IMG/VR virus record: IMGVR_UViG_2690316176_000005
DNA: 16,659 nucleotides
Reading direction: 5' to 3' (one strand)
Origin: a virus
Lineage: Duplodnaviria > Heunggongvirae > Uroviricota > Caudoviricetes
The notes beneath the pieces were generated by a model, which worked only from the letters and a program-made list of their open reading frames with translations, ran no database searches and was not told where the DNA came from. Position 1 is the stretch's first letter. Each line of letters opens with the position of its first letter. A program made the translations under genes and the position numbers. Below are positions 1,508 through 16,659 of the stretch, piece after piece.

Positions 1508-1533
1508 TCAATATTTAACACATGGAGAGATTA

Positions 1534-1692
1534 CATGTTTTCGATGATCGCTTCACCAAACTCTGAACATTTCAGCAGCTTAGCGCCTTCCATCAGACGT
1601 TCGAAGTCATAAGTTACGGTCTTGGCATTGATTGCGCCTTCCATACCTTTAACAATCAGGTCAGCCGCTTCAGTCCAACCCATATGGCGCAG
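1534..1692 (-). pseudogene. icd: Duplicated 3' fragment of isocitrate dehydrogenase gene icd (53 C-terminal codons plus stop); prophage attachment-site scar (attR side)
   Basis: Minus-strand translation [54 protein letters not shown] matches the Icd C-terminus. No icd sequence lies upstream of it; the adjoining DNA is AT-rich and non-coding. Confidence 0.9.
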
Positions 1693-2395
1693 CAGTATAT
1701 AAAAACCATGAATTCAAGTCATTGATATTTAACGATAAAAATTATTTTATTGTCTTTTTATTAGCCAAAATAAACTTTATTCAACCGTTTGATTTCATTG
1801 ACGTTCGTTTTTATTTTGGGGAAAGGTTTTCTCTACCATTTATATCCAAATTACAAGTCTACATTTTATTAACATCTCAATACATGTGAGGCCTTGCAGA
1901 CCTTTGTGAGACCTTATGTGTCTCTGTTTTGTCCCAACTTATGTTAAGAGGCACATAATTAAAAATAAGATAACGATGCCGCCAAGCAGTGCAAAACCTT
2001 GTTTACTCCACGACTGTCTGCCCCATTATCTGCATACATAATTATCCTCCATAACTGAGATAAATGTCGGTTATGAGCGAACAACAGACGTTTAGTTTAT
2101 GATGGCTGTGTCTATACATTAAACATAACATCCATTACCGGCACCGCTTATTAATTGCTATCTGATATTGTCACTAAAAAAATAGGCATTCCCCGATATA
2201 ATAATCACAAAGAAGCTTTTGGTGCTGGCAATCGGTATACCTCATAGTGGACTGCGACTTTCCGGGCACGACAAGGATATATCAATGTATGAGCAGGAAA
2301 ATTAGACCGTGGTGCGTCATATGATGACTAAGCACGGATAACAGCTACTTAATTGAAACTATTGATTATATTACAGCCAGTGCCTTATAGGATGG

Positions 2396-3517
2396 TTAGT
2401 CATCAACCGCGACTCCTGCACAATCATGGGCTATTGCCAGCAATTGTTTTTTAATTGCTTTAGCATCTACCGTCATATCTACTGTAGCAAAATGGATCTT
2501 ATGTCCCTGAGTGACAACATACTCATTAAGCATATAGCCAACAGCTGGATGAAGTAGAAGACCAGCGGCATTGAGCGAAAGCGGATCCGTCTTGTTCTCC
2601 TGTGTTCTAAGGTAGGTATATAGCTGATAAATATAGCCATTACGTAGTGATTGCTCCCGATGCCAACCCTTTGTCAGAATCGAATTAAATTTGGTATCGA
2701 TAATAATACGCCGCTGGGCAGTCTTGTGTTCCAGAATAATGTCTGACTTCATTGTCGGGAAAATCTCTGCACTACCTGCACTTTGATCGCTCAACGCCCA
2801 TTTCAGCTCTTTCCCTGCAGAGACCTGCCAAGTTGTTTTGGCAAGGTGTACACGATATAAGCCAGCGATACCTTTTTCAAATAGTCTTCTCATCCAGTAA
2901 AGGTTATTTGAGGGCGCAGGTAAAAGATATTGGCCTTGATCTTCGGTCGGCATCAGCAGTTCAAAAGCTAATCGTGCGGCATCGACCATCGGTTTATCTG
3001 CGGCATCATGGCGTCCAAAACGCCACACTGAGGGTAATTCGCGGGGGGCAGGATATCCTCCATTTATCCCCTCACGGCGAAGTGATATTGCCATAAAATG
3101 GCAATCTGCCGCCAAAGACGGTTTCACTATGATTGAGGCCAGACGTTCTAACGCACAGCGAACATAGCGATTTCGGGGGGTGTTGAGGGTTATGTCTTGA
3201 AAATGGCAGGCAACCTGTCCCCGTTCCAGCAGTTGATGACTGGCAGTATACAGTATGTCAATGCGCCCTCTCACCCGGTTCAGGGCCGCATGACAAGTTT
3301 GGTATCCCATATTTAAATTGCGACGTCGGCGCAGCGTAATCTCATGAAGGAGGATTGTCGCCACCAGGTCGGGGATTTCTGCTGGGTTATCTTCTACTGC
3401 GATCTGATTGCGCCCTAACTGGCGAAACAGATCTGAAGCGTACAGCATCAGCATCCAGATATTTCGCATGGGAATACGTGATGCTGTATGTTGCTCACTC
3501 CCGGTTATTGTCGTCAT
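2396..3517 (-). CDS. mcrC: McrC-family type IV restriction endonuclease subunit (PD-(D/E)xK nuclease), 373 aa
   Basis: N-terminal IPMRNIWMLMLYASDLF resembles McrC IPVRNIYYMLTYAWGYL. The C-terminal IIIDTKFNS...LRNGYIYQLYTYL resembles the McrC catalytic region IVDAKYYKS...QNLYQLMNYL. The ATG overlaps the upstream gene's stop (ATGA), indicating translational coupling. Confidence 0.8.
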   Translation of the reverse strand: MTTITGSEQHTASRIPMRNIWMLMLYASDLFRQLGRNQIAVEDNPAEIPDLVATILLHEITLRRRRNLNMGYQTCHAALNRVRGRIDILYTASHQLLERGQVACHFQDITLNTPRNRYVRCALERLASIIVKPSLAADCHFMAISLRREGINGGYPAPRELPSVWRFGRHDAADKPMVDAARLAFELLMPTEDQGQYLLPAPSNNLYWMRRLFEKGIAGLYRVHLAKTTWQVSAGKELKWALSDQSAGSAEIFPTMKSDIILEHKTAQRRIIIDTKFNSILTKGWHREQSLRNGYIYQLYTYLRTQENKTDPLSLNAAGLLLHPAVGYMLNEYVVTQGHKIHFATVDMTVDAKAIKKQLLAIAHDCAGVAVDD

Positions 3518-5496
3518 TTTGCTAATAACACTTTTCTGGCTTCATCGACTTTATTTGGAGCATCGAACCAATATTCGGCGAGCAAAGGGCAGATCTCTGT
3601 ATCAACGACTTGTTCATACCAAGCCTGGGCATCGTTGATTTTTTGGCCGATAGCTGGGGTGACATAGCTGTGACCGATACAAAACTGTGGTCCTAAGGTA
3701 ACATCTTTTGCCAGCATATCGTTTAATACCGTCAGTCGAGATTTGATGAATGCTAACATGTCAAAATCAATTGCGTAATTATAATTTACCCAGTTTCTCC
3801 ACGCGTCATTAAAAGCTGGCTTTAGATCGATAAACGCGAAACGACGGCGCAGCGCTAGGTCAAGTAGTGCGAGTGAGCGGTCTGCAATATTCATCGTACC
3901 GATGATATATAGATTCTCAGGAATGTATATTTTTTCATCAGCATTTTTAGGATAGGAAAGAGATAATGCCTCAGTCGGCGTGCGTTTATCTGCTTCCATC
4001 AACGTGAGTGTTTCACCGAAGATTTGCGCCGGATTGCCACGATTAATCTCTTCAATTATCACCACATATTTCGAGGTAGGATTATTGACTGCAGTTTTGA
4101 TTGCATTTACAAAAGGTCCATCAATTAGCGTCAATTGCCCTTCTTTACCTGGACGCCAGCCTCGAATAAAGTCTTCGTAAGAGAGGTTCGGGTGAAATTG
4201 CACCGCGCTAATACGCTCAGGTGCTTTTTCTCCCATCAAGCAGTACGCCAGACGTCGCGCTAACCAAGTTTTTCCAGTTCCGGGTGGTCCTTGTAATATC
4301 AGGTTTTTCTTGTCGATCAGGCGCTGAAGTGTGAGTTGGATCTTAGCCTCTTCCAAGAAACAGCCATCCTGCACCAGATGACTGATGTCATAAGGAACGT
4401 GGGTGAGTTTTGGCAACAGCGCACTCTCTTCGACAGTTTCCTCAGTTATCGTCTGGGATTCGTTTTTCTCAAAATTCAGGTATTCATAATTTCCGGACTC
4501 GAGGGACTTTAACTCATCATCATTGCATAGTTTCTGTAGATAAAAGTAGATTGAGCTTGTAACAGTTTTGCTCTCAGGATGCTCTACCTTGAATACGTCC
4601 AAGTAGTTTTCTTCCAACTCCGAAGCAGTGAAATAAGGGCCATTTTTTTTCAGGCATAACGCCTTAATTTTATTCAGTAAAGAGGCTTTCCACGTTCTAT
4701 TTGCCACCTCATCTTTAGACTGGCTAAGATCTGTATTCCACGCTGATAAGGAAAGTTCTGGGAAAGAATGAACCGGATAGTTTGGTTGGGTAAAGACCTC
4801 GTTCAGCGCCCGCATAAGACTCAGGTAACTTTGTCCACTACAGCGACCTTTTGCCCCGTTTTTAATGATCTTAATGTTTAACACTGTCTGAATGTAATAC
4901 TGCGACTGGCTATCTAAAGTGGGGTAGAACCAAGGACGGGTCCAGTACAACCCCATGGTGAGATTCCAACCGACATTCATTACTGTAGAAGCGATGTCAT
5001 ATGCGGCAGTGAAGTCTGCAGAGTTAGTATTCTGGTTATCCGCAAAGATCATTGCCTGTGAGAACATTTCCCACAAGCATTCAATGTCATTAGGGTCGCG
5101 TGACTTTTCATAACCAAAGAACCAAGATTTTTGGTTATTCAACAGAGGGATTCCGGCAAAGGAGTCAGGAATCGGTTCGTTCACGCCCAACAAATTCGCT
5201 AGCTTGGCAGCAATAATTTTGCGATTGCTGTCGGTCAAGTTACGATTGAACAAGCCCATAGTAGTAAACGGACAAATGTCTTTTAAGGGAAAGATCTCTC
5301 CCATAATAGATTTGTCCTGCAGATGGGACATTCCTTCCACACCCGAGGCAATTAGATGAATACCTTTGACTAATTCATCTCTACGATTTCGCCAAGTCAG
5401 TAACGCGTTGGCAAAAGCCTCATAAAAACTAGCCCAAGCAAACTTGCCATCATGTTCTGCTGTATCCACGGGAACTCCATTATACTTGTTGAGCAA
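3514..5496 (-). CDS. mcrB: McrB-family AAA+ GTPase with a long (~365 aa) non-canonical N-terminal domain, 660 aa
   Basis: Walker A LILQGPPGTGKTW. The VVIIEEINRGNPAQIFGE and IIGTMNIADRSLALLDLALRRRFAFIDL motifs are almost the same as McrB MIIDEINRANLSKVFGE and MNTADRSLAVVDYALRRRFSF, including the NxxD GTP-specificity motif. The N-terminal region has no similarity I recognise to the McrB 5mC-binding domain. The called start is TTG at 5494-5496; an in-frame GTG at 5467-5469 with a GGAG 5 nt upstream is an alternative. Confidence 0.85.
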   Translation of the reverse strand: MLNKYNGVPVDTAEHDGKFAWASFYEAFANALLTWRNRRDELVKGIHLIASGVEGMSHLQDKSIMGEIFPLKDICPFTTMGLFNRNLTDSNRKIIAAKLANLLGVNEPIPDSFAGIPLLNNQKSWFFGYEKSRDPNDIECLWEMFSQAMIFADNQNTNSADFTAAYDIASTVMNVGWNLTMGLYWTRPWFYPTLDSQSQYYIQTVLNIKIIKNGAKGRCSGQSYLSLMRALNEVFTQPNYPVHSFPELSLSAWNTDLSQSKDEVANRTWKASLLNKIKALCLKKNGPYFTASELEENYLDVFKVEHPESKTVTSSIYFYLQKLCNDDELKSLESGNYEYLNFEKNESQTITEETVEESALLPKLTHVPYDISHLVQDGCFLEEAKIQLTLQRLIDKKNLILQGPPGTGKTWLARRLAYCLMGEKAPERISAVQFHPNLSYEDFIRGWRPGKEGQLTLIDGPFVNAIKTAVNNPTSKYVVIIEEINRGNPAQIFGETLTLMEADKRTPTEALSLSYPKNADEKIYIPENLYIIGTMNIADRSLALLDLALRRRFAFIDLKPAFNDAWRNWVNYNYAIDFDMLAFIKSRLTVLNDMLAKDVTLGPQFCIGHSYVTPAIGQKINDAQAWYEQVVDTEICPLLAEYWFDAPNKVDEARKVLLAK

Positions 5497-5829
5497 TGAT
5501 AATTTATCTGTGTGAGTTTTAACATATTACTATCAGTTATAGAAAAATTTAACTATCCGATACAGAGAGCGGAATGCTGAATTTGACCTGACTTGCTTCC
5601 AACCAATTAAAATCAACTTATTTATCAATTGGTTATTTTGGCACATGGCGGTCATCAAGGCAATATCGCGTTGTCATAAGGTGTCGAGGCTCGGAGGTTC
5701 AAATCCTCTCATACAAAAAATAAATAAAATTAATGACGGTTGGAAATTATTCAATACACTCTCGAAAGTACATCAGCCAACCGCAGCACGTTATTGCATA
5801 TAACGTTTCTGCGGCATATCACAAAACTA
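5497..5829 (-). promoter_or_regulatory. AT-rich intergenic region between tfa and the mcrB-like gene; presumed promoter of the mcrBC-like operon
   Basis: A 333-bp non-coding AT-rich gap upstream of a two-gene operon. No specific -35/-10 assigned. It also contains a tRNA T-arm-like motif (see findings). Confidence 0.3.
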
Positions 5830-6414
5830 TTATTCCATAACAGGGATTGCAGGCCACTCAATATCAGGTGCAGTTGATGTATCAACACGATTCAGCAACA
5901 CCCGATACTTCTTCCAGGCTTCAAGCAACGAGGTTTCTTCCTCCGTTGCGATTTCCAGATCTGCAGCATCCTGAAGCGGGGCAATATGCTCACTGGCTAC
6001 CTGCATCAGGCTGTTTTTTGTTTCTTCCGCCTCCCGGATCCGGAACAGTTTTTCTGCTTCCGTATCCTTCACCCAGGCTGTGCCGTTCCACTTCTGAAAC
6101 TCCCCTTCCGGGGATAACCAGGTGATATTTTCCGGTAGAGGTCCGAGTTCAGAAATAAATAACGAGTCGCCGGAAGCCACGTCATAGACGGTTTTTCCCC
6201 GATGATCTTCAACGAGATGCCACGATGCCTCATCACTGTTGAAAACAGCCACGAAGCCTACCGGAATATCTGGCGGTGCAATATAGGTACTGTTTGCTGG
6301 CAGACCTGTATGAGGCGGAATATATGCGTCACCTTCACCAATAAATTCATTAGTTCCGGCCAGCAGATTATAAATTTTTATGGTCCGTGGTTGTTCACTC
6401 ATTCTGAATGCCAT
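5830..6414 (-). CDS. tfa: Tail fibre assembly protein (lambda Tfa / TfaE family), 194 aa
   Basis: [51 protein letters not shown]... is the conserved Tfa N-terminus of E. coli lambdoid prophages. Its ATG overlaps the stf stop (TAATG). Confidence 0.85.
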
Positions 6415-9263
6415 TATGCAAGCCTCACAATGTAGTTAAATGCGATGTTTTTGACGGTGTTTTCCGCGTTACCAGCAGCGTTAACGGTGATGGTGTGTCC
6501 ATGTGAGCCAATCGCAACGGAGTGCGTATGAGCACCAATACCGACAGTATGTGCATGTGCGCCTGCGCTTGCAGCAGTGCCGGACAGCGAGTGGGTATGA
6601 GCACCATCTGATGATGTCTTCCCTGCATTACGAGTCTGGCCACTACCGCTTGTTGTGCTCATAATCCCCGCGCTTAGATTTGAAATCGCGGTATAACCAT
6701 TAGGGAAAATGCTCGTGTTCGTGCCACCAAATGCACCGGAACTCTTGTGTTGGTGCGCACCGGCACTATTTGCGGTCCCGCTAATACTATGGGTATGCGC
6801 CCCGGTGTTATTCGTGGATTTGGTTCCGTAATCAAACGACGATGTGGTTTTCGTCCCCAAATCCGTACTGGATGCGCTGGCGCTGTGGGTGTGCGATTTA
6901 ATGCCGTCCTGTTCCTGAGACAATACGGCCCGACCACTGGCAGGTTTGCCCTTAATCGTCCAGCCACGCATATCAGGGATCACGCCTGACGGATAAGCGG
7001 CTGCAAGTTTCGGGTAAGCAGATTTGTCAAAAGTCTGCCCCTGCATCAGGGCATAACCAGACGGAACGGTATCTGATGGCCACGGGATTGGTGCGCCGAC
7101 TGGGTAGCTTTCTGGTGGAAGATTTTTCGAGGTATAAACTTCTGCCCAGCCTTCCTCAAAACCATAACCGTCTCTTGAAGAACGGTAGAACAGACCACCA
7201 TTTCTGTAATGCGCCTTCATCTGCAGGGTCCGGCAACTTCCGACTCCGGTATAGAAGTTAACCAGAATATAGCTGTCGCCAGAGCGGGTGACATTGTAAG
7301 CGCCTGATTCGGCATTCCAGGGAACGCCACCATCCGCATCGGCATATGTATCCGTTGCCCTTCTGGCAAAAGCAGCCACATGCGCGGCGGTTAAAGTAAT
7401 ATCTTTGGAACCATCAAATGGAACACCGGATATTTTTCTTGCAGTCTGGAGTTTTGTAGCAGTTGCAGCATTACCAGTGGTGTTCTGATTACCCGTAGTG
7501 TTTACACCTGGAAGGTTAATATTTGCAGAACCGTCGAAAACAACTCCACCGATAGATCTTGCCGTCTGCAATTTCGTGGCTGTACTTGCATTACCATTCA
7601 ATGAACCAGTTAATCCACCTGTAACAGACAACGGACCTGAAACTGTTCCTCCGGTTGTTGGCAGTGCTCCAATATCTGATGGTGTAGGTTTCTGATGTGA
7701 GCTATACATCGTATAAACAACACCATAGGTAACGCTGGAAGGCTTACTCGCTGAATATGTTGGCGAGGTATAAACAGAAACTGACGCATTTGCAGTACAA
7801 TCCCAATGGATATTTACACTCGTCGCATAATTGCCAATCTCAACGTAAATATCATATGTATCGCCGGATGTGTTGATCCAGGCGAAATTCGTTAATCCGA
7901 CGGCTGTACGCTTCCACAAAGCCCCGGTAATTCCTTTGGGGTTTCCATTGCCTGCTCGTAGAACCAGTTCTGAAATGCCTGCCTGATGTGGGGAACCGAC
8001 GTTGTAACCAGCGCCACCAATCAATGCGATGTAAACGATGGAACTCGCTTGTGGCATGGTAACCGTAGCCAGTTTGAACCACCCAGCCCCGCCAGAGAAA
8101 GACATCGTTACTGAATTTAAAGTACCAATATCTTTCGGCGTTAATGTTATATCCGCAGTCAGTGCTTTTCCGTTAACTTTTCGGTTAGATGGCACCCTGC
8201 TATTCGCATTGTCATTGGCTGCTTTAACTGCTTTTGGCGTTGCGGCCAGCGATTCACTGGTGCTATCAACAGCACTGCTAAGTTTCACAACACCTTTAGT
8301 TGTAAGGCTTGCGTCTTCCATCGCAACTGCACCGGCAATCTCTTCAGCACGATCAGCAGCAGCTTCCGCACGGGTCGCAGCGGATTCAGCAGTAGTTTTG
8401 CTCTGAGATGCCGCCGTCGCACTGCCAGCTGCCTCTGTCGCCTTCGTGGATGCTGTCGTGGCGCTGCCTTTCGCTGCTGATGCCTGTCTGCTCGCCTCAT
8501 CTTTTGAAGCAGACGCAGATGATGCCGATGACGCCGCCGAACTGGCGGACGATGCAGCTGCCATTTTTGAGGATTCTGCACTGGTTTCCGAGGCTTTCGC
8601 GTTCGTTTCGGATGTCTTCGCTGCGGATGCAGACCTCGCTGCTGCGCTGGCCTGTTCAGCGGCTTCGCCAGCCTTCGTTGTGGCTGTTGAAGCAGACGAT
8701 GCGGCGCTTTCTGCCGATTTTCCGGCGGCGGTGGCACTGGCTGAGGCCTGCCCGGCACTTGTTGACGCGGCACTGGCAGACGACGCAGCCGCTGTTTTTG
8801 AGCCTGCCGCAGCCGAGGCGCTCTGTCCCGCTGCCGTTTCAGAAGACCTGGCGTTTGTCTCAGACGTCTTTGCCGCCTTCGCGGAATTGCCTGCCGCCGT
8901 TGCCGAGGAAGCGGCACTACTGGCGCTTGATGATGCGTTCGTTTCTGATGATTTCGCTGCCTCTTTTGAGGCCGCCGCATCCCGGGCTGAGGTGGCTGCT
9001 TCTGACGCCTTCGTGGTCGCGGCGGATGCAGAAGTGGCTGCTGATTGTTGTGACGCTGCCGCATTCGTTTCTGACGTTTTCGCCGCACCGGCACTGGTAG
9101 CTGCCGCGCTTTTTGAGGACTCTGCAGCAGCACTTTTTGCTGCTTCACGGGCCTTTGTCGATGCCGTTCCTGCGCTGGAAGACGCTGACTGAGCCGACGA
9201 CGCGGCCTGTCCGGCTGACGTGCTGGCGGCACGTGCTGAGCCTGCAGCATCGGTTATTACCAC
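6414..9263 (-). CDS. stf: Side tail fibre protein (lambda Stf family), 5'-truncated, 949 codons in frame
   Basis: Ala/Ser/Thr-rich repeats (AAKTSETNA...), the conserved [20 protein letters not shown] segment, and a C-terminus ([46 protein letters not shown]...[49 protein letters not shown]) that matches lambda Stf. The roughly 130 N-terminal residues of lambda Stf are absent; the ORF-track start is a GTG immediately after an in-frame stop. Confidence 0.85.
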
Positions 9264-10113
9264 TTCCCGGATCGCTATACGCTATTCCGTTAAAGATAAT
9301 GGGCGGAATAATGATTTGACGGTCAAAGTTATGATCATCGCTGATGGTGACTGTAACCGTCCCGTTTGGTGTTTCCGTATTACCCCACGTACCAGCCTGT
9401 TTCGGGAATGATTTGGATACAGCTTTAACGAAGTCACCTCTGACCTGAGTCGCCTCCAGCATGCCCTTAATCGTACAGTTTTCATTTACCGTGACATTGT
9501 TGAGCGTCCCGGCGTTCGCATTCACACTGCCACTGATATCCGCATTTTTAGCGGTCAGCTTTCCGTCCGGTGTCAGGGAAAATGCCGGTGGATTTCCACC
9601 GCTGGTAATGGTGGGGGCCGTCAGGCGTTTCAGGAACACGTCGTTCATGAATATCTGATCGCCCTGACCAACAAACATCGGTTTTGTGTTGCCATTCGCA
9701 GGATTAACCATCGCAATCCTGTCCGCCGCCAGCAGCACCTGACTCTGCATGCCGTCAGGGGTGTTCTCAATATCCACGATGGCCTCTTTTTCCGGTACAT
9801 GCTGCACGGCGGTGATGGCATACGTGCCGTCATCGTTCTCACGGATACTCACGCAGCGGAACAGGCGCTGGCGCAACGTCGGCAGCTTCAGCCCCCATAC
9901 GCTGTATTCAGCAACGCCGTCAGGAACACGGCTCACTTTCACCTTCACGCCGTCGGTGACGGACTGAACCTCCACGCTGACCGGACTCCCCTGCCCGTCA
10001 ACCAGGCTTATCAGCGTGGTGCCGGAAGATGGCAGCGTGATTTCACGGTCGAGCGTCAGCGTCCGGGTCTGGCTGTTTACCGCCAGCACGCGCCCGCCGG
10101 TGCGGATACCCAA
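9145..10113 (-). pseudogene. J: Remnant of tail-tip / host-specificity protein J: a middle segment joined to a C-terminal segment, with internal deletion
   Basis: [99 protein letters not shown] and ...[46 protein letters not shown]... match lambda J from memory. The several hundred residues that separate these blocks in lambda are missing. The N-terminus is absent, the called start is TTG, and the reading frame runs into stf. Confidence 0.75.
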
Positions 10114-10331
10114 GCTGGAGTGGCGAACGTTTTACCCTTGCTGATGAGGTATTCACTGATTTCGCTGTACCACATGTGGCTGAGTGCATTCTGGGAAAGA
10201 CTGCGTCTCTCGCGCCACGGTTTAAGCACCATGCGAAAGCATTTGCCGTCCTCCAGATAAGGCTGGATCTGCCGACCGATAGCGGTGAAGTTACCGCGAT
10301 GCAATTTGATACCATCTTGTGGGAGGTTCAC
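10077..10331 (-). pseudogene. 5' fragment (~76 codons) of a NinB-family (lambda nin-region) gene, truncated at the junction with the J remnant
   Basis: GTG start with a strong SD (GGAGGTGAAGC-GTG). The motif WRERRSLSQNALSHMWYSEIS resembles lambda NinB ERNRSLDQNRKLWACLGDVS. The ORF ends inside J-homologous DNA. Confidence 0.5.
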
Positions 10332-10525
10332 GCTTCACCTCCGCAGAGATCAAACGCTGGATGCAAAATATCGCAGGTGCATTTCTGCATCTGTGAATGG
10401 AGAAGAGAGGTTGGATTGTATGTGCGCATAAACGTCCCCGTTTAGCGCAGAAGTCACCGGAGTTGTTCAGGCCCCAATGGCATGATTATGGCTGGTTGAT
10501 TATTGGAAATCAAATGTGCTGAAAA

Positions 10526-15774: not shown

Positions 15775-15929
15775 CGCATCCTCACGATAATATCCGGGTA
15801 GGCGCGATCACTTTCGTCTACTCCATTACAAAGCGAGGCTGGGTATTTCCCGGCCTTTCTGTTATCAGAAATCCACTGAAAGCACAGCGGCTGGCTGAGA
15901 AGATAAATAACAAACAGGAGGATATATGA
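15771..15929 (+). CDS. Small ORF, 52 aa, homologous to the lambda ORF immediately downstream of exo (orf60a-like)
   Basis: [52 protein letters not shown]; its ATG overlaps the exo stop (ATGA). The DNA matches the lambda post-exo sequence as I recall it up to about 15905-15920. Absent from the ORF track because it is under 60 aa. Confidence 0.5.
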
Positions 15930-16545
15930 GTCAGGTTGGTAATCATTCATTCGAATTTCCGGCATCGCAAGGTGTACAGGGTGGTACTGTTACACTCTTC
16001 CTTACCATACCAGGAAGATCGCTGGCTCGTTTCCTCGCTTCAGATAATTACGGCCATACACTGGAACGCTCTCAGCGAGAAATTAATCCAAATCGAGTAC
16101 GAAAATTTTTAAATTATCTCACTAACGCAGACTCAAGAAATGAGCCTTTTATCATTCCCCCTCTCGTAGGTAACTGTGATTCGAATATAGAATTTGTACC
16201 GTTTGGCAACACAAATGTTGGTATAGCCAGAATTCCCCTCGACGCCGAAATAAAACTTTTTGATGGTCAACATCGTGCAGCTGGCATTGAGATATTTTGC
16301 CGAAGTTCCCCATCAACGCTCATGGTTCCCATGATGCTTACAATGAATCTGCCGCTAAAAACCCGGCAGCAGTTCTTTTCGGACATAAATAACAACGTTT
16401 CTAAGCCATCAGCGACCATCAATATGGCGTATAACGGCCGGGATGATATTGCTCAGGGAATGATATCCTTCCTGACCCAACATACTGTATTTGCCGATAT
16501 AACCGATTTTGAACACAACGTAGTGCCATTAAAAAGTAATATGTG
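15926..16545 (+). pseudogene. DGQHR-motif (DndB-like, ParB/Srx-fold) protein gene, 3'-truncated by IS insertion at about codon 206
   Basis: ATG overlaps the preceding stop (ATGA). The conserved LFDGQHRAAGIEI motif lies at residues 112-120 (nt 16259-16285). The last 16 codons of the 222-aa track ORF are read from the IS left end, so the native C-terminus is missing. Confidence 0.6.
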
Positions 16546-16659
16546 TGAACCGCCCCGGGAATCCTGGAGACTAAACTTCCTGAGAAAGAGGTAAACAGGA
16601 TGACTAAAAATACTCGTTTTTCCCCCGAAGTCCGTCAACGGGCAGTCCGTATGGTTCTG
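16546..16659 (+). mobile_element. Left end of an IS3-family insertion sequence (IS629 / IS1203-like), partial; continues beyond the window
   Basis: Terminal TGAACCGCCCCGGGAATCCTGGAGACT..., followed after about 50 nt by an orfA start whose product matches IS629 OrfA from memory. Confidence 0.75.
16600..16659 (+). CDS. IS3-family transposase OrfA, N-terminal 20 codons (partial)
   Basis: MTKNTRFSPEVRQRAVRMVL matches the N-terminus of IS629/IS1203 OrfA as I recall it. Confidence 0.75.
   Translation, partial: MTKNTRFSPEVRQRAVRMVL

Follow-up and report, generated by a model that had tools for sequence, protein, structure and literature searches.

An McrBC-type gene pair in an E. coli prophage

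We analysed a 16,659-nucleotide stretch of viral DNA (IMG/VR record IMGVR_UViG_2690316176_000005; hereafter the window), which matches the chromosome of Escherichia coli strains FORC 064, E2 and many others at 100% identity. Its minus strand carries a gene for an McrB-like protein (3514..5469; 651 aa from GTG 5469; RefSeq WP_000379040.1) and, downstream, the gene of its McrC partner (2396..3469; RefSeq WP_001486526.1). The pair is most likely a GTP-dependent, modification-dependent (type IV) restriction system of the McrBC type, borne by a prophage as cargo. In front of its GTPase core the McrB-like protein carries a widely conserved domain, here called D1, then a DpnI-type winged helix (wH) and an acidic linker. 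The predicted fold of D1 weakly resembles that of DNA glycosylases and D1 may be the module that inspects the target.

The longest open reading frames (ORFs) start at TTG 5496 for the McrB-like gene (3514-5496, minus strand, 660 codons) and at ATG 3517 for mcrC (2396-3517, minus strand), the latter overlapping the mcrB stop. Since RefSeq places the start of the McrB-like protein at GTG 5469, a Shine-Dalgarno GGAG is read directly from the sequence 5 nt upstream of it (5475..5478, minus strand) and the homologues P0001 and P0002 start likewise, this GTG and not TTG 5496 is probably the true start. Residues are numbered here from TTG 5496, and subtraction of 9 gives the RefSeq numbering; the residue numbers of an earlier sequence-only reading of this DNA, also counted from the TTG, are thus 9 too high if translation begins at the GTG.

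The C-terminal part of the protein is an McrB AAA+ GTPase core with its lid (residues 379-660; 3517..4362, minus strand), assigned by homology and motifs. BLASTP aligned residues 380-659 with positions 178-457 of K-12 McrB (47% identity over 282 aa, E 6e-82) and a search of PDB sequences aligned residues 378-652 with the McrB chain 6hz4 (E 5.6e-76). The Walker A (GPPGTGKT, 403-410), Walker B (IIEEINR, 480-486) and McrB NxxD signature (MNIADRS, 535-541) motifs align with those of K-12. The McrB-like nature of the core, as proposed in the sequence-only reading, was thus confirmed, but its beginning had been set too late, at about residue 395: similarity to McrB actually starts near 369-380. The McrC ORF scored 356 bits with the NCBIfam McrC equivalog (cut-off 338), matched Pfam McrBC and is 24% identical to K-12 McrC; its nuclease motif D259...D274-T-K276 (counted from ATG 3517) aligns with the K-12 D...DxK motif. 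Both ORFs are full length and hold all catalytic motifs.

The situation is different upstream of the core. No BLAST similarity was detected between residues 1-365 and residues 1-177 of K-12 McrB, and scans of the same residues gave no match in local Pfam (E<=10), to a reader family or otherwise, nor in NCBIfam or PADLOC. The PADLOC matches of the full protein all fell within the AAA+ part, to which its matches among PDB sequences were also confined. The NCBIfam McrB equivalog (PRK11331) aligned over model positions 176-452 only, with 262.5 bits for a cut-off of 637. With the equivalog below cut-off, no BLAST similarity and no Pfam match, the DUF3578/ADAM 5-methylcytosine-binding domain was not found. 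The observation that some 365 residues before the core are unlike the K-12 5-methylcytosine (5mC) reader was therefore correct.

The N-terminal region holds two domains and an acidic linker

A search with residues 1-365 retrieved 271 homologues at E<=1e-3. D1 (about residues 11-255) was present in all homologues mapped, with 42-72% identity over D1 among the matches listed. In most of them the McrB core followed about 30 residues after D1, and residues 256-365 were common to only about a dozen. The single 365-residue domain assumed earlier was consequently rejected, homologues either lacking residues 256-365 or carrying other domains there. The region is divided instead into D1 (residues 11-255; 4732..5466), an all-alpha domain that is conserved in different phyla and whose predicted fold is weakly glycosylase-like, of the HhH-GPD type; a winged helix of the DpnI_C type (residues 258-340; 4477..4725) with the recognition helix S314-S-I-Y-F-Y-L-Q321; and an acidic linker (residues 341-378; 4363..4476; computed isoelectric point, pI, of 4.2 for 346-378), all on the minus strand.

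D1 residues 11-255 matched proteins with a precomputed PF28527 annotation (E 1e-146 to 1e-65). A context look-up gave the names DUF8425 for PF28527 and McrB_lid for PF28529, the region that follows; both entries postdate the release of Pfam used locally for our scans. We found no mention of DUF8425 or WP_000379040 in the literature, and the CoCoNuT census paper contains no discussion of the D1 domain.

The head combines a constant D1 with an exchangeable slot

In 83 homologues, D1 shared 45-64% identity with that of the E. coli protein. The homologues span Proteobacteria, Acidobacteriota, Nitrospira, Spirochaetes, Omnitrophota and others, and plasmids with D1 were seen in Deinococcus, Rhodococcus, Clostridium, Bacteroidales, Proteus and Cupriavidus. 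R39, D73, T78, N84, R85, R92 and R133 are invariant polar residues of the domain. Orthologous operons include one in Leclercia (DUF8425-DpnI_C-AAA_5-McrB_lid with McrC) and one devoid of the winged helix in an unrelated metagenomic genome.

A 464-position profile was then searched against a representative library (50% identity clusters), with about 1,500 cluster representatives at E<1e-30; this number overstates the size of the D1 family, since the profile, besides D1, kept part of the AAA+ region. The best 150 library matches listed were all strong D1 matches. We surveyed the architecture of 146 representative D1 proteins from this search, 114 of them apparently complete. D1 was nearly always followed by an McrB-type AAA_5 domain. 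Among the complete representatives, D1 and Walker A were separated by an insert of 110 aa or more in 36, an extra N-terminal extension was present in 62, and in 28 of the 114 D1, single or tandem, was the sole domain besides the GTPase. Scanning of 38 inserts with Pfam identified Mrr_N in three, DpnI_C in two and EVE in two, which are nucleic-acid reader domains known from modification-dependent restriction enzymes; the other inserts received no Pfam assignment.

Because AAA_5 almost always comes next and the inserts vary from one representative to another, what stays constant in the head is D1, and what is exchanged is the slot that follows. This reverses the earlier picture of a swappable N-terminal sensor: D1 is conserved and is one of the most widespread McrB N-terminal modules, and it is the slot between D1 and the GTPase that is swapped (DpnI_C, Mrr_N, EVE and other inserts). 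It follows that, provided their mode of action is that of McrB, the 28 representatives with D1 alone must rely on D1 to recognise the target.

Other arrangements of the domain were also observed. D1 occurs in two or three tandem copies in P0121, P0124, P0128, P0152, P0168 and P0216; P0128 has three, and its first 830 residues or so also gave many TPR-repeat matches, before and between the copies. About half of the DUF8425-McrB proteins (for example P0007-P0013) have an extra N-terminal domain of about 160 residues with no match in local Pfam, which the E. coli protein lacks, and P0105 has a precomputed PF28530 annotation somewhere in the protein. On Bacteroidales plasmids DUF8425 is fused to FRG, another putative effector domain, and not to McrB (WP_254028306.1, 494 aa; locus L007, 3998-5482; hhalign probability 99.6%), and the fusion gene adjoins a DUF6531 (Rhs-like) gene. 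In a metagenomic genome (L004) a DUF8425-McrB/McrC operon is flanked closely upstream by a stand-alone, divergent DUF8425 gene (4948-5703; 251 aa; hhalign 93%) and closely downstream by a gene (9269-10429) for a 386-aa NucS_C-nuclease protein whose C-terminal part of about 260 aa has no family assignment. Whether the latter protein is an END-like Ogg-domain nuclease related to D1 was examined with hhalign (probability 0.2%) and in the PDB (no Ogg match), results that say little either way. D1 thus behaves as a portable module (tandem, stand-alone or FRG-fused), as sensor modules often do.

The predicted fold of D1 weakly resembles that of HhH-GPD glycosylases

An AlphaFold2 model of D1 from an 83-homologue alignment (predicted local distance difference test, pLDDT, 90.9; predicted template-modelling score, pTM, 0.89) comprised about ten helices and a small beta-hairpin. 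When the model was compared with the PDB by Foldseek, 47 of the top 50 matches were Ogg, OGG1, MutY, EndoIII or Tm1821, the best being members of the Ogg2 subgroup (SsOgg 3fhg, MjOgg 3knt and Tm1821 3n0u). None was better than E 0.2 and template-modelling (TM) scores did not exceed 0.38, which is in the grey zone; modelling and Foldseek, the route suggested by the sequence-only reading, thus yielded a weak glycosylase likeness for D1 and, as described below, DpnI for the winged helix.

The stretch VG176WNLTMGLYWTRPWFYPTLD195 has the hairpin-helix-Pro loop-Asp order. In the model, helix 159-169 is followed by a hairpin (N-V-G176-W), a 9-residue helix (178-186), the loop R-P188-W-F-Y-P-T-L, and D195 at the start of helix 196-205. 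The spacing from G176 to D195 is 19, to be compared, by inspection and with no statistic, with 20 in Nth (GVG118...IAVD138), 20 in MutY (...FPILD138) and 22 in AlkA of E. coli. In 280 D1 copies P188 was 99% conserved and position 195 was D in 91% and E in 5%, with N, S or T in a few copies. The position of the Lys of bifunctional enzymes corresponds to N178 (78% N, 11% K). D1 thus shares with the HhH-GPD Ogg2 glycosylases a set of about ten helices and the succession of a putative hairpin, helix, Pro-rich loop and Asp with matching spacing, but differs from them by a beta-hairpin insert (60-70) and a conserved 33-residue loop (104-136).

Several observations weigh against this likeness. The hairpin glycines are only partly conserved, the canonical second one, G176, being kept in 128 of the 280 copies (46%). 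No sequence-profile relationship was detected either: Pfam scans of 22 diverse D1 sequences at E<=10 gave scattered single-member noise and neither PF00730 nor PF21790, the D1 profile found nothing at E<=10 among all PDB sequences, and hhalign of D1 against Nth, or against a three-sequence Nth/MutY/AlkA alignment, with shallow profiles, returned no alignment. This last negative is weak because the search for Nth homologues gave only 86-99% identical sequences and hence a shallow profile. Taken together, the individually weak but convergent features of the model lead us to think, with some reserve, that an HhH-GPD-like fold is the probable one for D1.

The winged helix belongs to the DpnI_C family but has lost most of the methyl pocket

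Homologues sharing residues 256-365 passed the Pfam DpnI_C model (PF17726; cut-off 23 bits): P0058 with 47, P0002 (Leclercia) with 36 and P0001 with 25 bits, the last two being 43-51% identical to the E. coli protein over the winged-helix stretch. A ten-sequence profile of this stretch, headed by the E. coli sequence, matched the DpnI winged helix (4esj, chain positions 188-256, E 1e-12) and essentially nothing else. Residues 1-365 of the E. coli protein itself gave no PF17726 match at E<=10. The AlphaFold2 model of residues 256-355 (pLDDT 82) had the canonical a1-b1-a2-a3-b2-b3 topology, and its top Foldseek matches in the PDB were the DpnI structures 4esj and 4kyw (probability 1.0, TM 0.60-0.66). 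The E. coli winged helix therefore has the DpnI fold and, at family level, its sequence homology; the DpnI domain is attached to a PD-(D/E)XK nuclease, that of E. coli to a GTPase motor.

In DpnI, E228, K229, R231, Q232 and Q235 of the recognition helix hold both methyl groups of Gm6ATC (PMC3424567). The equivalent residues in E. coli are S314, S315, Y317, F318 and Q321, so that only one of the five is kept (Q235 as Q321). The Q321 equivalent is invariant in the winged-helix family, and more distant homologues of this architecture show S-T-x-A-R-x-x-Q, also without the exact DpnI motif. This fits the observation of Helbrecht et al. 2024 that no more than about 10% of wH fusions have preserved the N6-methyladenine (6mA)/GATC motif (PMC11037411).

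The wH described here should not read Dam methylation, since an McrBC that reads Gm6ATC would attack a Dam+ chromosome, and yet the gene is intact and, as described below, under purifying selection. E. coli is Dam+. The loss of the methyl pocket and the Dam+ host both argue that the domain is not specific for Gm6ATC, and a dismantled 6mA pocket in such a host provides an example of a reader retuned against self-restriction.

The suggestion that the N-terminal region is an uncharacterised sensor hence holds for most of it, D1 (DUF8425) being functionally uncharacterised and a sensor role the most reasonable one, but not for residues 258-340 or so, which belong to the characterised DpnI C-terminal family. 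A confident hit to such a reader family, which the sequence-only reading had named as the result that would speak against it, was thus obtained in part, for the winged helix (4esj through the family profile, DpnI as top structural match); its weight is limited, as the Pfam model does not recognise the E. coli domain, in which four of the five methyl-pocket residues are lost.

The operon occupies a cargo slot of an icd-integrated prophage and is maintained

The operon is part of a degraded lambdoid prophage integrated at icd. It is flanked on one side by the tail-fibre assembly gene (5830..6414, minus strand), the last phage structural gene before it, and on the other by the icd' remnant (1531..1698, minus strand; the attR side of an e14-type prophage), which marks the end of the cargo slot. 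The e14 element of K-12 holds mcrA at the same slot (tfaE-stfE-pinE-mcrA-icdC-iraM). The shared mcrA slot supports a role of the operon in anti-phage, modification-dependent restriction. At this hotspot (1531-6414), one type IV restriction system thus seems to have been replaced by another.

The McrB-like gene was intact in 289 of 5426 complete E. coli genomes (about 5%) and at least 99% identical in 290 genomes. Two alleles differed by 14 synonymous and 3 non-synonymous codons; the gene is under purifying selection. In strain ML35 (NZ_CP025747.1) it is interrupted by an IS3-family element. A phage genome collection contained no DNA or protein match. A sigma-70 promoter scan of the 333-bp gap upstream revealed none convincing. 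A perfect TATAAT (5479-5484) abuts the GGAG of GTG 5469, too close for a promoter with a normal leader.

Comparison with known systems

The gene pair shares with EcoKMcrBC the two-gene organisation, mcrB upstream of an overlapping mcrC, a GTPase core 47% identical with its Walker A, Walker B and NxxD motifs, and an McrC 24% identical with the D...DxK motif. The heads are different: a DUF3578/ADAM 5mC-flipping domain of about 160 aa in EcoKMcrBC, and DUF8425 with winged helix and linker (about 370 aa) here. So is the location, EcoKMcrBC residing in the immigration control region and the E. coli variant described here in a prophage as cargo. Similarly, McrB homologues with other readers, such as the YTH-McrB of T. 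gammatolerans (PMC11037411), combine a constant motor with an exchangeable head. The reader examined here is not of the PUA/YTH/EVE class, and its head is itself made of a conserved D1 and an exchangeable slot.

Helbrecht et al. 2024 list 'NTD-wH-NTPase' proteins paired with McrC, a group that is uncharacterised and whose NTD is 'of unknown function' (PMC11037411). As that paper names NTD-wH-NTPase with McrC, the architecture is already in print. The E. coli recognition helix (Y-F-Y) is more diverged than those of the other members of the group that were aligned (A-R-Q). D1 itself is already catalogued, as a DUF.

A precedent for a sensor role of D1 is found in the END nucleases, which recognise hypermodified bases promiscuously through an EndoIII/Ogg-like domain that has been inactivated; this sensor was reported also on McrB-like GTPases (PMC12191111). 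Judged by that description, D1 would likewise be a modification sensor with a glycosylase fold in a type IV-like defence system. However, HHpred links the END sensor, which is devoid of catalytic residues, to EndoIII/OGG Pfam families, whereas none of the profile methods used here revealed such a link for D1, which keeps the Asp.

Proposed mechanism and alternatives

McrBC is a textbook modification-dependent restriction enzyme, although targets have been established for no more than a few of its N-terminal readers. A simple model for the operon would be a modification-dependent McrBC variant in which D1, with or without the winged helix, recognises modified phage DNA; this is the likeliest of the explanations considered, and may well be how it works. 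D1 would inspect DNA bases in the way HhH-GPD enzymes do and act as the main target-recognition module. The winged helix in the variable slot would provide auxiliary contacts to duplex DNA that are not Gm6ATC-specific. Once the head is bound, the complex of McrB hexamer and McrC would translocate DNA at the expense of GTP, and the D...DxK nuclease of McrC would make the cut, steps that would follow the established mechanism of EcoKMcrBC. DNA binding by D1, base flipping and the modification of the target are the parts of this model that we infer. The acidity of the head counts against it: D1 has a median pI of 5.4, unusual for a DNA-binding module, and the E. coli winged helix, in contrast to that of DpnI, is acidic too (pI 5.1). 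So does the failure of a published attempt to purify an NTD-wH-NTPase member (PMC11037411).

The acidity also fits another explanation, rather unlikely in our view, in which D1 does not read DNA modifications. It would instead serve structure, oligomerisation or regulation, or would sense a protein or a small molecule, and targeting would be left to the variable domains, the winged helix in E. coli and EVE, Mrr_N or the N-terminal extension in other members. D1 is far more conserved than usual arms-race sensors, four of its conserved residues are arginines that could bind a phosphorylated ligand, known readers (DpnI_C, Mrr_N, EVE) are inserted beside it in some members, and about half of the members have the extra N-terminal domain of about 160 aa. 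Yet in the 28 of 114 complete representatives with only D1 before the GTPase it is the sole candidate for recognition under the McrB paradigm, the only fold similarity found was to DNA-binding, base-flipping enzymes, and the E. coli winged helix, to which targeting would then fall, is an acidic domain, too, and no longer has the recognition residues of DpnI. The same conservation (45-64% across phyla, unusual for a sensor) could be explained if D1 were an active monofunctional glycosylase of the HhH-GPD type that excises modified bases of phages, either as the defence itself or to produce abasic sites that license translocation and cleavage by McrBC, which we take to be distinctly unlikely. 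A carboxylate stands at the catalytic position in 96% of the 280 copies, contrasting with the iEndoIII sensor of END whose catalytic residues are lost (PMC12191111), the invariant R39, D73, T78, N84, R85, R92 and R133 are reminiscent of an enzyme active site, and glycosylases acting on their own have been shown to defend cells against phages (PMC13160076, with the Brig1 paper cited there). On the other hand, the Asp of HhH-GPD proteins also caps the following helix and its conservation may therefore be structural; some copies have N, S or T at this position and the Lys position is Asn; moreover, the fold assignment is weak and the McrBC mechanism requires no base excision.

If the winged helix were the specificity determinant and D1 an accessory, the system could be an McrBC dependent on 6mA outside Dam GATC sites, as has been suggested in general terms for wH fusions. 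The homology of the winged helix to the 6mA reader of DpnI, the invariance of Q321 (DpnI Q235) in the family and the 6mA dependence of many wH-nuclease fusions (PMC11037411) speak for this possibility, to which we give little credence: four of the five DpnI residues are replaced, the E. coli sequence misses DpnI_C at E<=10, and the motif survives in only about 10% of the wH fusions (PMC11037411). Moreover, the gene is intact and under purifying selection, although a broad 6mA reader would be toxic to its host, since E. coli carries several 6mA methylases. That the operon is a decaying, non-functional remnant whose N-terminal region is meaningless appears most improbable. The prophage is indeed heavily degraded with many pseudogenes, one strain has the IS3 insertion and the 333-bp upstream gap shows no convincing sigma-70 promoter, but both ORFs are complete and lack none of the catalytic motifs, identity is at least 99% in 290 genomes, the two alleles show a 14:3 ratio of synonymous to non-synonymous differences, and orthologous operons exist in Leclercia and in distant phyla.

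For the modification-dependent McrBC variant itself a more specific version can be formulated, which we find unlikely as a whole: DUF8425 would be a new, divergent and widespread HhH-GPD branch that has kept its catalytic Asp on an McrB motor, acting in many bacterial phyla either by base excision coupled to GTP-driven cleavage or, through a glycosylase pocket, as a broad-spectrum detector of hypermodified phage bases, with the slot (wH, EVE, Mrr_N) tuning specificity. DUF8425 looks like one of the commonest McrB heads and has no function assigned. If D1 is a glycosylase-derived base inspector, it would be the second case, after the END nucleases, of DNA-repair folds that sense phage hypermodification, in a system encoded natively by E. 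coli and thus directly testable.

Other features of the window

The GC content is 56-58% in the tail-fibre region (6414-10113), 42-48% in the McrBC operon and 31-35% in the chromosomal flank, and several tail genes in 6414-10113 are given in RefSeq as partial or as pseudogenes. The GC contrast and these partial or pseudogene tail genes indicate that the prophage is a mosaic remnant. At the other end of the window, a gene for a DGQHR-domain protein begins at 15926 on the plus strand (15926-16659 in the window), with an ORF stop at 16594. The last 114 bases (16546-16659) are unlike those of strain E2. As the end bases differ from E2 and the ORF stops at 16594, the DGQHR gene seems to be truncated or interrupted in the strain from which the window derives.

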